NCBI GenBank assembly: GCA_037379345.1
Contig: CM074516.1
Location: 38,353,626-38,417,625, forward strand
Direction of reading: 5' to 3'
Length of the DNA: 64,000 nt
Origin: Perna viridis
Lineage: Eukaryota
Part shown: positions 25,801 through 31,800 of the stretch, one piece after another
Position numbering within the stretch: the stretch's first letter is position 1
How the letters are laid out: every line of letters begins with the position of its first letter
Notes under the pieces: model-generated
The model's input: only the letters and a program-made list of their open reading frames with translations
What the model was told of the DNA's origin: nothing
Database searches by the model: none
Translations under genes and position numbers: made by a program

Positions 25801-28800
25801 TCTTTTTGATTCAGGGTAAAAATTCTGTTGGACAGTACATGTATGTAATAACATACTGGTACCTGGGGTCTGTTTGATTTGATGAAGGTGTTTTTGAGGT
25901 TAGTACCTGTAGAAATATTTTACACCCGAAGTCTGTTTGATTCAGTGTAGTGATTCTGGTTGAAGACCTGTAGGTTAGTTTTCTATTTAGGGTATCTTTA
26001 GTTGGATGTATGTATTCTGGTGGATTCCTTCTGGATAGTTGTATATATGGTGTCTGTTTGATTTGGTACATAGAGGTTTGGTGGACAGTACCTGTATGTT
26101 AGCTTTGTACCTGGGATCTGTTTCGTTAGAAAAAAAGATTTTAGTGGATAGTACATATAGATTAGCTTCATACCTAGGGACTGTTTGATTCAGTTTGTTT
26201 GTTTGTTGGGGTTTAACGTCCGAGCAGCAATATTTCAGCTATATTCAGACGATGAACATGAAATTGATGATAAAATGATTTAGCCTCCTGTGGCGGAGCC
26301 CTATGGTTCCTACTCCGGGGGAATACCACAGTAAGGTTCTTTAATGTGCGAGGAACGTGGCATCTTACGCAACACGGTGCACCACTATGGTTTGCGGTCA
26401 GGTTTTCCGTATTACAGCCTGACAACCCCAGCATGTAACACACCAGGAGTACCCCATTCCACCACCTGGGGCACACATCCCAGTTGCTCTGTGGGCAGAG
26501 TGCCCTAGCCCCTGGCTAGGGTTCTGAGCACTATTTAGTCGCCTTTTACAACAAGCTTAGCACTGCTACAGGCCTATTCTTTTAACACCCGGACCTGCAC
26601 GGGGCCTGTTTGATTCAGTGTAGGGTACCAAACTAGCTTATATAAAATATCCTGGATTGCCCAAAGAGAGCCAGCCAACCTAAAATCTTGCTACTAATCA
26701 AATTGAATCATTTATTACTAGTCAAGTTTAATAAATATTCTATGTAAAGTTTCTCTGATTTCCAAACATTGCATGTGAGTGTTTTATCAGTTTGGTGATC
26801 TATTAATGAACTATTCAAGGTTTGATACATTATATGTTTTTACAGAGATGGTACAACAGATGTTACCCGAACATTTCACTTTGGCACACCTACTGATTTT
26901 GAGAAGGTCGGAAAGAAATGAAGAAATATTGTTACTTTCAGGAGATTGCAAAGGGAGAAAGTTGAATGTATTGGTCATACATGACTAATTTAATGTTCAA
27001 AACGTTTACGGATACAGGAAAATGAATGTAACCTAAGGTTTAAGAGCTCTGAAAAGAAACTCCATACAAGAGTTGCTGTCCTTGTCCAAAATGATAATAT
27101 TTGTCGTTTATTGTTTCAGTTATGAAAAGTAGATTGAAAATATCATGGAAAAGGTTATCATTATGACATTGTTTTCAAAAGTTTCTGTTAAAATATGTCG
27201 TATTGTTTAAGAACTATTTATAAGAGTTATTGCTCTTTAAATTCGAGAAATGATAGTTTCACTGTTTTTATATAACTTTTATTGATATTGTCTGATGTTT
27301 CCACCTCTAGAATGTCTACTTTATTATACTTTTTGTTGTAGGAATGTTACACACTTGTTTTGAAGGGGCAAATTGGTCTTACAAATTCTGTCTTTACAAA
27401 TGGTTTAAAAGGTATGTTTCATTACAAAAATAAAATGAAACATGCTAATAATTACTTTGAATAATATGTCCTCTGAATGATCTCACATTATAAGAAATGT
27501 GTGTAAATTAAACCATGAATAAACTGTATGACTTTCTAGAATAATCATGAAGTTCTTTCATTTTGCACTTTGAAAATGTGACAAACAAAAAATTGTCTTA
27601 ATTGGAAAGAATCTTGTTTCAATATGATTTTGATATGAAGGAAGGACTTGACAAGCCAGGGGTAAACAGTGATCTTCATATCCATTTATATGTCACTCTA
27701 GGTTTCCAGATGATATTTACCCCTCATCAATATTTTTACTAAATAAAGTAATCATCAAGTTCATTTGCATTTAACTGGAGTTATGGTCTTTTTCCACTTA
27801 TAGATATTGGAATGTTTGGGTATTGTTGGTAGCTTGATGAGTTTTTATATAGTTAATATGTACTTTTTTGAATAGAGTTTGGTTGTTGAAAATGTTTCTG
27901 TTGTCAGCTAAAATCAAATCATGTAATGATATGTTATAGGAAGATTGATAGACTTTTCTGCTAGATTACCTTTATGGAAGAGAGGGCTACAGTATAGACA
28001 TGGTACAGGGCATGGAATAGGGTCATACCTTAATGTACATGAAGGTGAGTAATTCTGCACTATAGACATGGTACTGGGCATGGAATAGTGTCACACTTCA
28101 ATGTACATGAAGGCGAGTAAGGCTGCAGTATAGACATGGTACAGGACATTAAAAGAGGACATACCTTAATGTACATGAGGGTGAGTAAGGCTGTACTATA
28201 GACATGGTACAGGGCATGGAATGGGGTCACACCTTAATGTACTTGAGGGTGAGTAAGGCTGTACTATAGACATGGTACAGGGCAAGGAATAGGGTCACAC
28301 CTTAATGTACATGAAGGTGAGTAAGGCTGGACTATAAACCTGGTACAGGGCAAGGAATAGGGTCACATGTTAATGTACATGAGGGTGACTAAGGCTGTAC
28401 TATAGACATGGTACAGGGCAAGGAATAGGGTCACACCTTAATGTACATGAAGGTGAGTAAGGCTGGACTATAAACCTGGTACAGGGCATTGAAAGGGGAC
28501 ATATCTGTACTATAGACATGGTACATGGCATTGACTAGAGGCATACCTTAATGTATATGAGGTAGAGTAAGGCTAGACTATAGACATGGAATATGGACAT
28601 ACCTTAATGTACATGAGGGTGAGTAAGGCTAGAATATAGACATGGTACAGGGCATGGAATGGGGACATACCTCTATGAACATAAGGGTGGGTGAGGCTGG
28701 ACTAAAGACATGGAATCCTTAATTTACTTGAAGGTGAATAAAGCTGGACTACAGACTTGGAATATCAACATACTTTAGTATATATAAGGGTTAGTAAGGC

Positions 28801-31800
28801 TGGACTATACACATAGAATAGCAGCATACCCTAGTGTACATAAGGGTGAGTAAAGCATGGAATTGGGGCATAGCTTAATGGAAATGAGGGTGAGTAAAGC
28901 TGAACTATAGACATTGACATACTTTAATACATGAGGTTGATTAAAACTGAACTATAGACATGGAATAGGGGCATATTTTATTGTACGTGAGGGTGAGTTA
29001 GGCTCGGCTATGAATTTGGAATACTGTATGGTATATCATGGGCATACATTAATGTACATTAGGGTAAGTAAGGTTGGACTATAGACTTGATTCAGCACAT
29101 GGAGTAGGGGCATACCTTAATGTACACAACAGTGAGTAAAGCTAGACTATAGCCATAGAATAAGAACCATTCCTTAATGTACATAGGTAAATATGGCTTG
29201 ACTATAACAAGGCACTGGTCATGGAATAGAGGCATACCTAAATGTATGTGAGGGTATTTTTTGATGGAGTGTAGACATGGTAAGGGATATGGAATAGGGG
29301 CATACTCTAATTTAAGGCTGGATCAAAAACATTGCACTGGTTGTGTGATAGAGCATATCTTAATGTTCTTGAGCATAAATTTTGCTTGACTATAGACATG
29401 GTAAATGACATAGAATGGGCGTATTAAAATACACATGAGAGTAAGTGAGGCTGGACTTTAGACAAGGCACTGGCCATGGATTAAGGACATATTTCAGTGC
29501 TGTAAAGGAAGATAACCCAGTGGTCTTGAAGTATTATTTTGTAGAGTTAGTATTAACCACTGAAAGAACAAAAAGCAAATTATTGTTTAATTGATTGAGA
29601 AGTATTGTTTAAAGTGTATAAAAAAGATTTTTTTAAAATATGGCTTGGAGAAAGTAAACAGTATTTTTCAAGAGAGTTTTAGAAAATAAGAATTTTTAGT
29701 AATATTAGTTCACACATGTTCATAATTCTAACTGTTTTAGTAAAGTATTGAAGTACAACTTCAATCAGATGTGTATTACATAGAAATACACTGGTCTTTG
29801 GTCATACTTTTGAATACTCATTCTCATTGATTAATGATTTTGGGTTATATTCATCTGTTTGTTCATTATCCCATCTGTCTCATTTTACTTTACCTTATAA
29901 TCTTGACCTCTGATGTATCTATAGGTCCTGGGTCTATATCAATAACAGGGAGAGACAGCTCTGTGGACCAACCTTTACAGGAAAATATGTTCTTCTCTGT
30001 TGGTAAGTGAGTACGGTTTAGTTTTAGAGTCTCATAAGAACATGAAGTTAATTAGTTTATTGAATTTAAAAAAAAATGCATGTCTGTTTTACAGTAAACG
30101 CTACAGTGTCAGTCTGTCCATCTTCTACAGTTGTGGCCTTAACAACTATTTGCAGGAATTAAACATAAAATTATTTCTTCTCAGGATAATTTTTTATCTC
30201 AAATTAATCACCAATAAAATATGGGCTTACTAGGCCTGTACACAAGGGGGGTATGGGAATTGCAACTGTGCCTCCTTTGAAAAATTTACAAGCACAATTT
30301 AACTGGTTATTTTGATTGAACTGTGACTACTAAAGTCAGCCTTTGTTCTCAAACACTGGCCAATTAAGTTTGCACCCCCTTTGGAAATTCCGGTGTACAG
30401 GCCTGTGTACTGTTTTTAGGATGCTTTTTTGCAATTTATTTGCAGTTAATTAATTTTTTTGTGTCAGAAGTAATTTAGGGCAAGTTCAGAAACAACAAAT
30501 ATAATGTGAGACTTGAAGTTTAAGAGGAAGCTTATATAATGTGATTCAATCAAGAAGCCATGTCAGACTGAACAATAGTTTTGTTTTGTTTTTTTTTGTT
30601 TTTTTTTGTTTTTTTGTTTTTTTTGGGGGGGGGGGGTTTTGGTTTATATGTAACGGTATGGTCAATAAATTTCTATTTTACATCTCTTTACTAGAACCTG
30701 GATATTATGAGGATGGCAAGTTTGGTGTTAGACATGAAAACATTGCCCATATTGTAGAAGCTGAGACAAAGGTATGTATATAATACATTGTCTGGCTTGA
30801 TTATTATATCTCCACTCTGAAGATTAAAGGGGGTGTATACTGTTTTACCCTTGTCCATGTTTTTCATTCAGTTTTCTCAGCAACTACTCATCACAGCGAC
30901 TTGAAACTTTAACACCATCTTCTTTTAGGTCTGCAATAAGGTAAGATTTATTTTCAGAGAAATTTTAAAAGAAAATTTTGTTTACTGAGGACTTTGTTTA
31001 TTCTTTTTACATAATGTTTTTGAAAGTTGAAATTTTACTCTAGACTTTTCTCAGTAACTACTCATAACAGTGGCTTAAAATTTAAACACATTCTTTCTGT
31101 AGGTATGCCATATAGTAGGATATGTTATCAAAACAAATAACGTCCTGTTTAACGAGGGCTTTGATTATGTTGCAGATATTGTGATTAAAAGCGGAGGTAT
31201 AACTAGTGAGCCATCGATCATAGATTTCTTGTGTTTTTAAATGTCAAAACCAATATTATTTCAGTAATAAACTATATTTTCCCTTGCAATTGGCAGGGGG
31301 TATCACCAAGTGTGCTTTGCTCACAGACTTTCTAGTGAACCAGTACCTTGCAAAAACATTTCATTTCTTTCTTCTGCTATTTATAACAGATTCCTTAGTT
31401 TAGCTTTTCTTAATTTTTTTATTGACTCCAAAATCTGTAGCTTGTCAATGTTTTATTCTTTTATATATGTTTGACATGTTTTATTTGTTCAATTTTTCAG
31501 TATCACTTTCCAGGATACAAGTTTCTGACCTTTGACACTGTAACCATGGTACCATATGAACCACATATGATTGATTATAGTTTACTGACAGAAGAAGAGG
31601 TATTAAGACTTACACAATATATTTTTTTTTACTTTTATATCTTATGTAGTATTACTGTCCAACCATCCACATGCTATTTGATTTTTTGAAGAAAAAAAAA
31701 CATTGAGGGATTTTAATAATTTTTCTTATAACCTAGCAATGTCTGAATGGAAGGGAGGTCCCTTTTGTCTCTTATTTTCTTCCTGTTTTTTTCATTCTTG

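Follow-up and report, generated by a model that had tools for sequence, protein, structure and literature searches.

Minisatellites whose first unit straddles an exon-intron boundary are a structure type known from several human genes. In F7 IVS7 the unit is 37 bp (4 exonic and 33 intronic nt), alleles carry 5-9 units, and the identical pseudo-sites are silent, according to the part of PMC1557585 cited here. The VNTR of CBS, c.1444_1467+7(16_21), is a length-polymorphic repeat of 31 bp at which two pseudo-sites are used, as described in PMC2630376 and PMC1557585. By the same account in PMC1557585, splicing is confined to the authentic site in LMNB2 (100-bp unit) and in PDGF intron 4 (81-bp unit), whereas two pseudo-sites serve as donors in intron 2 of 6-16. 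The preference for the first donor is established in mammalian cells, not in molluscs.

Array A, which we describe here in an intact aminopeptidase P gene of Perna viridis, belongs to this known repeat type, together with the boundary-spanning minisatellites of human F7, CBS, 6-16, LMNB2 and PDGF: its units run head to tail, unit 1 contains the authentic exon end and donor, and the donor is reiterated in the intron. It is probably a selectively neutral minisatellite, fed from the exon end and with its first unit lying across the exon-intron boundary, that may record former states of the exon. Its features are listed in Table 1 with those of array B, another array of this kind in the same gene; the window is the whole 64,000-nt stretch of DNA analysed.

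Table 1. Features mapped in the window
Feature	Position	Strand	Basis or remark
Aminopeptidase P (XPNPEP/M24B) gene, copy 1	14226..33314	+	tblastn and splice model
Exon ending in the DSGGQY motif (Asp415 equivalent)	25259..25408	+	last ~20 nt start array B
Array B: exon end, donor and ~43 intron nt repeated as 13 units of ~63 bp	25389..26194	+	score 240 vs shuffles 27 +/- 4.5
SINE-like insertion in distal end of array B	26195..26605	-	14-bp target-site duplication 26181-26194 / 26606-26619
Real exon with H485/H489/H498-equivalent motif	27940..28044	+	splice model; final 59 nt make up the exonic share of unit 1
Array A: exon end and donor repeated head to tail, 25 units, 68 (42-71) bp each	27986..~29500 (last unit reliable to ~29491)	+	
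Quasi-palindrome straddling donor, 20 bp, 18/20 positions	28027..28046	.	candidate duplication seed (weak)
Authentic donor AAG/GTGAGT and in-frame TAA (28050-28052)	28045..28053	+	intronic part of unit 1
Pseudo-donor of unit 5	28314..28322	+	identical to authentic 9-mer
Pseudo-donor of unit 7	28450-28458	+	identical to authentic 9-mer
Next exon after array A	29925..30002	+	splice model
Exon with E537 equivalent and end of E523-equivalent codon	30695..30771	+	lost on pseudo-donor use
Tandem paralogue, copy 2	50164..63745	+	14 mapped exons, 73% identical to copy 1 at the aa level
Lone degenerate extra DSGGQY exon end in copy 2	63321..63357	+	~40 bp past real one, GC at donor position

The model of copy 1 comprises 20 mapped exons with a 664-aa open frame and GT-AG boundaries at 19/19 introns, and starts after the first exon(s), whose approximate place is upstream, near 10600-10705. 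The protein is 70% identical to Mytilus trossulus protein P0003. All of the metal ligands (Asp, Asp, His, Glu, Glu) and the second-shell His residues are present, the equivalents of D415, H485, H489, H498 and E537 being assigned by alignment and those of D426 and E523 by the splice model, with residue roles taken from PMC5774706. This set matches that of human XPNPEP1 (aminopeptidase P, M24B, PDB 3ctz), from which the host gene differs in having a hydrophobic C-terminal tail, like the membrane form, and in being one of a tandem pair in a mussel-like genome. No other stretch of 15 residues in the modelled protein is as hydrophobic as the last 15 (mean hydropathy 2.15), a tail that is compatible with a GPI signal.

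The earlier note on this DNA had described an exon end amplified together with its donor, and the array is real, with a period of 68; the amplification stands, while the copy number of ~20 has to be raised to about 25 units. Unit 1 (59 exonic and 9 intronic nt) is indeed the real exon: no other copy has the exon's 5′ half and an AG acceptor in front of it, and with a splice from 28044 to 29925 the frame stays open across the 20-exon model; the in-frame TAA and the acceptor lie where they had been placed. Units 1-7 are full length and many later units carry deletions; units 10, 12, 13, 14 and 17, for instance, have lost 12 bp lying between two CATGG words. A degenerate HGTGHG pattern has 13 matches in the window, all within array A, against 0.22 expected from shuffles. 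Identity to unit 1 declines with unit number (Spearman -0.83, p=6e-7, over units that are non-independent), so that the previously proposed decay with distance holds as a trend and fails as a monotonic rule, units 5 and 7 being 91% identical to unit 1 and unit 2 85%. Units 5 and 7 are identical to each other, and 24/25 units differ mutually. In the tree of the 25 units, 0/21 inner branches are starred and most are unresolved; units 1, 2, 4, 5, 6 and 7 group at 81/84. The distal units show what appears to be neutral decay, with base changes biased from G/C to A/T (127 GC-to-AT versus 41 AT-to-GC), indels, stops, and donors lost as fast as the rest.

The quasi-palindrome over the authentic donor has the best score among 33 donors, a score reached by 1.7% of 1500 random 40-mers, and its DNA fold amounts to only -2.3 kcal/mol. 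A pre-existing direct repeat upstream of unit 1 was considered as a seed and set aside as weak, since 4.8% of 668 exon 30-mers score equally. Mutually exclusive duplicated exons were rejected because the array units are without the first 46 nt of the exon. On a matrix derived from the acceptors of the window, no AG within the array scores above 5.2, against a median of 9.6 for real acceptors, yet the real next acceptor, 29925, reaches only 4.1 and so falls under the 10th percentile.

Donor positions are present in 21 of the 24 units downstream of unit 1, counted there as 17 GT, 1 GC and 3 lost. Unit 2 has the peptide and the GC donor (28112) previously read from it, and, of the later units said to keep (a/g)g/gtgagt, 8 do so; the two exact copies of the authentic 9-mer, in units 5 and 7, lie 272 and 408 nt downstream of it. 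Strong GT sites are ~4 times denser in this intron (6 in 1.87 kb) than in the other introns (20 in 25.8 kb), and this density, together with two pseudo-donors equal to the authentic one, makes leakage plausible. Use of any downstream donor would, as had been pointed out, take in the TAA and remove 147 residues, including the E523 and E537 equivalents and the hydrophobic tail, and the resulting premature stop, with 4 downstream junctions, would be of the NMD type.

The donors themselves decay at the background rate. Mismatches at positions -3 to +6 number 29/190 versus 198/1245 elsewhere in the units (p=0.92; rate ratio 0.96, 95% CI 0.67-1.37), in the proximal and the distal half alike, and counting shared changes once against base-matched controls gives no excess of conservation (P 0.13-0.71). 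Raw counts, sliding-window ranks, base-matched controls and shared-change counting gave no sign of selection on the donors, in a test with a power of 86% for a halved rate and only 28% for a 25% reduction, over non-independent units. The earlier note had named donors decaying as fast as the rest of the unit as one half of what would overturn its regulatory proposal, and that is the rate we find. As to a possible masking of the pseudo-donors by RNA structure, the region 27940-28330 folds better than shuffles (z -3.17) and a small hairpin over the donor is possible in most units; opening energies order the sites differently from one window size to another and give the authentic donor no advantage.

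Coding content is likewise close to neutral across the units, with a pN/pS of 0.87 and 8 stop codons; 76/190 unit substitutions (0.40) are tolerated, against 0.37 expected under neutrality. Mismatches are fewer at codon position 2 (48/401 vs 74/397 and 65/400), a deficit, uncorrected for base composition, that we did not take as a sign of coding constraint because of that pN/pS and the neutral tolerated fraction. Between the exon and the majority sequence of array A there are 5 differences in coding bases, each of them either silent or leading to a residue that homologues also have, an outcome with a simulated chance of 0.001-0.012. Exon-specific bases are shared in 11/30 cells of units 2-7 versus 6/83 of units 8-25, and the exon's Ser codon is found only in units 2, 4, 5, 6 and 7. 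These shared bases indicate that exchange has occurred, and a flow from exon to array fits the pattern of the aligned units better than the reverse. Searches for close relatives that could polarise the changes returned mostly plant proteins for the motif exon and no matches for the last exon; the best 150 representatives are at most 82% identical and were left out of the polarisation.

Array B lies at the exon carrying the Asp415 equivalent; a second exon-end array in one gene is new here, and array B is older than array A. It was missed both by TRF and by the earlier note. Its units average 76% identity to their majority sequence, show no gradient of identity (rho -0.12), and have donor mismatches of 24/108 versus 147/617 elsewhere (p=0.81). 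In the exonic part, a single aligned base separates the majority from the exon, and through it 10/12 units read Leu; at this site homologue motifs have Leu in 67/83 and Ile in 0/83, and both paralogues carry Ile. The SINE-like insertion matches 14549-15067 at 391/413 aligned bases. In the intron of copy 2 only a single exon-end copy resembles array B, non-significant against the 63-bp majority unit, and copy 2 leaves the window before its homologue of exon 27940-28044. Junction copies occur at 3/32 donors screened. On the acceptor side, the 32 introns gave a single marginal array hit, close to the number expected by chance from 64 tests at the 1% level; five other tandem arrays in the window (26-, 39-, 67-, 42- and 24-mers) have exon-junction similarity not above shuffles, and Rfam gave 0 matches over the window.

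How the majority sequences came to differ from the exons can be read in two ways. We tentatively propose that arrays anchored on an exon are extended at the exon end and thereby become an archive in which the exon's former coding sequence is kept in order, a claim that may just as easily fail as hold. Array A would then record, at motif codon 2, a change from Asp through His/Tyr to Gln and, at codon 13, one from Ala to Ser, and array B would have kept the family's Leu codon where both living paralogues now have Ile. Counting against such an archive, Mytilus proteins agree at these residues with today's exon (Gln and Ser) and not with array A (Asp and Ala), both paralogues share the Ile, array B lacks a gradient, and the unit tree is mostly without resolution. 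The same observations on Mytilus, the star-like unit tree, and the presence of the Ile-type base in array B units 8 and 13 as well as in both paralogues would suit an equally neutral but one-off burst from a slightly mutated founder, homogenised later only beside the exon, in which the majority sequences are accidents of the founder. We regard such a burst as possible but rather unlikely: random changes would all have fallen on tolerated sites of array A with a probability of about 0.1-1%, only 2 of ~57 single changes give the Leu in array B by a simple count, and several distal units of array B carry two synonymous bases of the paralogue's exon.

The remaining alternatives give the array a function or deny its reality. 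The earlier note took the repeated donors for a bank of competing U1 sites, kept to tune the share of transcripts sent to NMD. The premature stop that any downstream donor brings, 4 junctions behind it, the typical real-donor scores of units 5, 7 and 18, the use of pseudo-sites in human 6-16 and CBS (PMC1557585, as cited), and, by the title of a cited reference, a link of the CBS VNTR to reduced activity would all accord with such a role, yet we find it improbable, as donors in arrays A and B are without excess conservation, the nearest competitor (unit 2) has changed GT to GC and units 3-4 are weaker than unit 1, single events that would, if anything, run counter to such a bank, and F7 uses only its most upstream site, even against stronger ones, as described in PMC1557585. 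Still less credible is the other role raised in the earlier note, a reservoir from which variants of the active site pass into the exon by conversion or crossover. Bases common to the exon and proximal units and absent distally fit it, although one haplotype gives no direction, and conversion seems to have affected three exons of the paralogue pair (synonymous differences 2/30, 5/19 and 3/28 versus 27-70% in the other 11), which implies active conversion at the locus. Against this, all three His survive in no units but 2, 3 and 11, and each of these has either a stop or a substitution where the residue is otherwise invariant; a motif that homologues tolerate is encoded by 0/10 full-length downstream units, at the pN/pS given above; the exon matches Mytilus proteins at both residues where the array A majority differs; and conversion from such copies would be mostly harmful, as proposed for a CBS junction duplication. 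An assembly artefact or transposon-borne repeat, which the repeat-rich window and the identity of units 5 and 7 might suggest, is hardly conceivable given graded divergence and indels among otherwise distinct units, a unit made of exon sequence, and the lack of any copy elsewhere in the window or of an Rfam match there.

The neutral minisatellite we favour could have begun with a 68-bp tandem duplication across the donor of the catalytic exon, perhaps aided by the quasi-palindrome; it would have done no harm, as the exon kept its correct end in the upstream copy. Slippage or unequal exchange would have lengthened the array by further units and by local duplication (units 5-6 to 7-8), only exon-adjacent units would keep exchanging with, or being re-copied from, unit 1, and unit 1 itself would be held fixed by purifying selection on the protein. 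By analogy with F7, the spliceosome probably takes the first donor and leaves the others silent, and rare leakage would produce a premature-stop transcript removed by NMD as waste, not regulation. As a by-product, older units would retain former exon states, and the same process at a second exon probably produced array B.

Array A belongs to a known type and its sequence gives no sign of maintenance for regulation, which keeps our headline claim modest. It nevertheless offers a natural test of first-donor preference outside mammals with a built-in NMD read-out, and a warning for annotation, as one active-site motif is matched many times over in such arrays. Should the archive reading hold, array A would be a dated series of neutral active-site exon copies beside the selected original; and if bivalve arrays are as common as 2 arrays in 32 introns suggests, a single genome would be enough to read the order of substitutions and to compare selected and neutral change on the same sequence.

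Among the described systems, F7 IVS7 shares with array A a first unit on the exon-intron boundary, a donor reiterated in the intron and one acceptor facing all donors; array A differs in its 59 exonic and 9 intronic nt with a metal-ligand motif, its 25 units and its graded decay. The CBS VNTR resembles it in a mostly exonic unit (24 exonic and 7 intronic nt by its name), ~20 copies, substituted units and an enzyme gene, and an ordered record of older exon states is absent from its description in the cited parts of PMC2630376 and PMC1557585. The arrays of 6-16, LMNB2 and PDGF, as described, similarly have 10-25 units of similar length starting from an exon end; these are mammalian, whereas here two arrays occur in one invertebrate gene. 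Turnover of human minisatellites is polar at MS32-type loci. At MSY1, conversion is described with non-significant polarity, by the portion of PMC2599865 cited here. As in the MS32 type, one end of array A is unlike the other in homogeneity; in contrast to those loci, its young end is anchored on a coding exon, and former coding states should therefore be readable from it.

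Two tandem aminopeptidase P genes (copy 1 and copy 2), both on the + strand, were modelled by tblastn with three mollusc proteins and inspection of exon boundaries. The copy 1 protein shares 70% identity with M. trossulus P0003, and copy 2 runs past the window end ahead of the counterpart of the exon that bears array A, the repeat of an exon end and its donor. This exon matches human XPNPEP1 residues 467-499 (E 1.5e-9), and the top named homologues of a neighbouring exon are bivalve proteins, Mytilus first, a similarity that points to a mussel-like bivalve as the probable source. 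Paralogue synonymous differences amount to 2/30, 5/19 and 3/28 in three exons versus 27-70% in the other 11. Three successive exons (14226-16115 and 50164-54419) are 88-89% identical with few synonymous differences and dissimilar adjoining introns, suggesting exon-limited gene conversion between the paralogues; the exons at 23103 and 26846 are intermediate in similarity. Two copy 1 donors look weak (16113-16121, ATG/GTGTGT; 26904-26912, AAG/GTCGGA), their copy 2 counterparts being more usual.

Elsewhere in the window, short open frames at ~480-2140 (+ strand) resemble the final exons of another gene, possibly one for an RNA-binding La protein, and an inverted repeat of 256 bp at 2367-2980 has arms 99% complementary and 102 nt apart. 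A fragment at 36511-36810 looks reverse-transcriptase-like by eye. Between the gene copies, a 67-bp array (41270-41568) and short open frames at ~42100-43750, some zinc-finger-like by eye, are probably a decayed mobile element.

Coordinates of the genes and exon-end duplications
Feature	Position	Strand	Description
Copy 1	14226-33314	+	20-exon model; 19/19 introns GT-AG; 664 aa; internal stops 0
Copy 2	50164-63745	+	14 exons modelled; 73% identity to copy 1
Array A unit 1	last 59 nt of exon 27940-28044 + 9 intron nt	+	delimited by wrap-around parse
Array B	25389-26194	+	13 units of ~63 bp; 76% mean identity to majority sequence
Lone degenerate extra DSGGQY exon end, copy 2	63321-63357	+	40-bp spacing; GC donor

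The array of exon ends and donors described in the earlier note is real, and the wrap-around parse gives it 25 units from 27986, slightly more than the ~20 first counted. Units 1-7 are 68 bp long and many later units carry deletions, which in five of them include a 12-bp loss bounded by a pair of CATGG words. The array is polar, as claimed, with identity to unit 1 dropping from 82-91% in units 2-7 to 61-76% in units 18-25 (Spearman -0.83). Unit 5 is identical to unit 7, and unit 6 resembles unit 8, showing a local duplication of two units. The 21 downstream donor positions (pseudo-donors) comprise 17 with GT, three that are lost and the GC already reported in unit 2, the only one. With the window's 32 other donors as the scoring matrix (real-donor median 9.1), the authentic donor at 28044 and those of units 5 and 7 all reach 9.7, and that of unit 18 reaches 9.2. 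The local matrix gives the real acceptor at 29925 a weak score of 4.1, below the 7.4 of an unused AG at 29545. Read-through past the authentic donor would reach TAA at 28050-28052 and is predicted to drop 147 residues including the E523 and E537 equivalents, in agreement with the truncation proposed before both Glu ligands; metal-ligand roles of these residues are taken from PMC5774706.

The functional interpretation fails the sequence test applied here. Measured against the array's own majority sequence, mismatches affect 29/190 cells at donor positions -3 to +6 and 198/1245 in the remainder (p=0.92), and the donor window ranks 32 among 68 sliding windows. Units 2-11 and units 12-25 taken separately give this outcome too, and it is unchanged when shared changes are counted once with base-matched controls (P 0.13-0.71). 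Power is 86% for a halved rate and 28% for a 25% reduction with cells taken as independent, which they are not. The donors decay as fast as the rest of the unit (rate ratio 0.96, 0.67-1.37), which speaks against a bank of competing donors maintained for splicing. A reservoir of variant active-site sequence finds no support either: no coding constraint is seen on the units (pN/pS 0.87, 8 stop codons), and not one of the 10 downstream units of full length has a motif built solely of residues known from 79 homologue motifs. G/C-to-A/T changes number 127 versus 41 in the opposite direction. Background-rate decay and absent coding constraint together exclude, at the level of sequence, strong selection for donors or usable variants, an exclusion not reaching weak selection or passive leakage. 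RNA structure predictions reveal no consistent hiding of pseudo-donors. The closest pseudo-donor (28113-28114) is the one turned to GC, and array B has a weak second donor and a third without its GT; selection against near competitor donors could explain this, but the events are too few to say more.

Each of the 32 modelled introns was searched for repeats of its own junctions, which gave donor-side matches at 25408, 28044 and 63309 and one marginal acceptor-side match. Donor 25408 closes the DSGGQY exon (Asp415 equivalent) of copy 1 and opens array B, which scores 240 versus 27 +/- 4.5 in shuffles and is undetected by TRF. Its donors also decay at the background rate (24/108 versus 147/617), with no identity gradient along the array. 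The intron here is 1437 bp long in copy 1 versus 375 bp in copy 2, where it contains the lone extra exon end. The distal end of array B is broken by a SINE-like element flanked by a 14-bp target-site duplication. This copy (26195-26605) and another at 14549-15067 are 391/413 identical and lie in opposite orientation in copy 1 introns; both show a target-site duplication and carry a (CAAA)n-type tail. Array B and the extra exon end in copy 2 indicate that exon-end duplication is recurrent at this locus, as would be expected of a tolerated mutational process while the first donor still wins. Both arrays begin in metal-ligand exons, possibly by chance given two cases. A 20-bp quasi-palindrome (28027-28046) spans the array A donor, the best among 33 donors, and is a candidate, no more, for the array's seed; it folds weakly and is equalled by 1.7% of random 40-mers, and the array B junction has a palindrome of 8 bp only. 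A copy 1 intron also holds a highly homogeneous 39/40-bp minisatellite (20015-21639; ~41 units, 95% matches) without exon similarity, which shares a sense-strand G skew of ~+0.3 with both arrays.

Bases specific to the present exon fill 11/30 cells in array A units 2-7 versus 6/83 in units 8-25. The exon's Ser codon (motif position 13) occurs only in units 2, 4, 5, 6 and 7, distal units having mainly Ala or its G-to-A derivative; at motif position 2, distal units have Asp and proximal ones Tyr, His or Gln. The majority sequence, whose Ala base is a plurality only (10/23 units), departs from the exon at five coding bases; of these changes, two are silent and three give Asp and Ala, residues found there in 4/29 and 6/29 motifs from the best 35 homologues. 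The chance that 4-5 random changes are all tolerated is 0.001-0.012. The exonic majority of array B has a single aligned difference from the exon, a base that gives Leu and is found in 10/12 units. Leu follows DSGGQY in 31/31 full motifs among the best 35 homologues and 67/83 overall, and Ile in 0; both paralogues have Ile (25407-25408, 63308-63309). Two synonymous bases of copy 2's exon also recur in several distal array B units.

On the simplest reading, functional exon sequence founded the arrays and refreshed them near the exon, older units holding older states; patchy conversion between paralogues would provide a route for overwriting the exon after array formation. Several points speak against this reading: the Mytilus proteins have the Gln and Ser of today's exon, two array B units have the Ile-type base, the tree of array A units lacks resolution, and the Leu reading requires either that array B predates the paralogue split or that the change occurred twice. 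Homologue searches found no close relatives able to settle the matter. That two arrays in one gene record the history of their active-site exons is a tentative proposal, to which we give a little less than an even chance.

Literature searches of titles and abstract openings, in a library with few subscription papers, listed neither arrays preserving former exon states nor a bivalve example of such arrays, which is weak evidence of absence. The same architecture is described in PMC1557585 for F7 IVS7, with 6-16, CBS, LMNB2 and PDGF listed alongside. There, the F7 pseudo-sites are functional but go unused, since splicing takes the most upstream site; 6-16 and CBS also make use of two pseudo-sites. 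The CBS VNTR, with a unit of c.1444_1467+7 in 16-21 copies according to PMC2630376, is nearest to array A in anatomy among these systems. Array A is a further case of this known architecture, and we are fairly confident that it is neutral.
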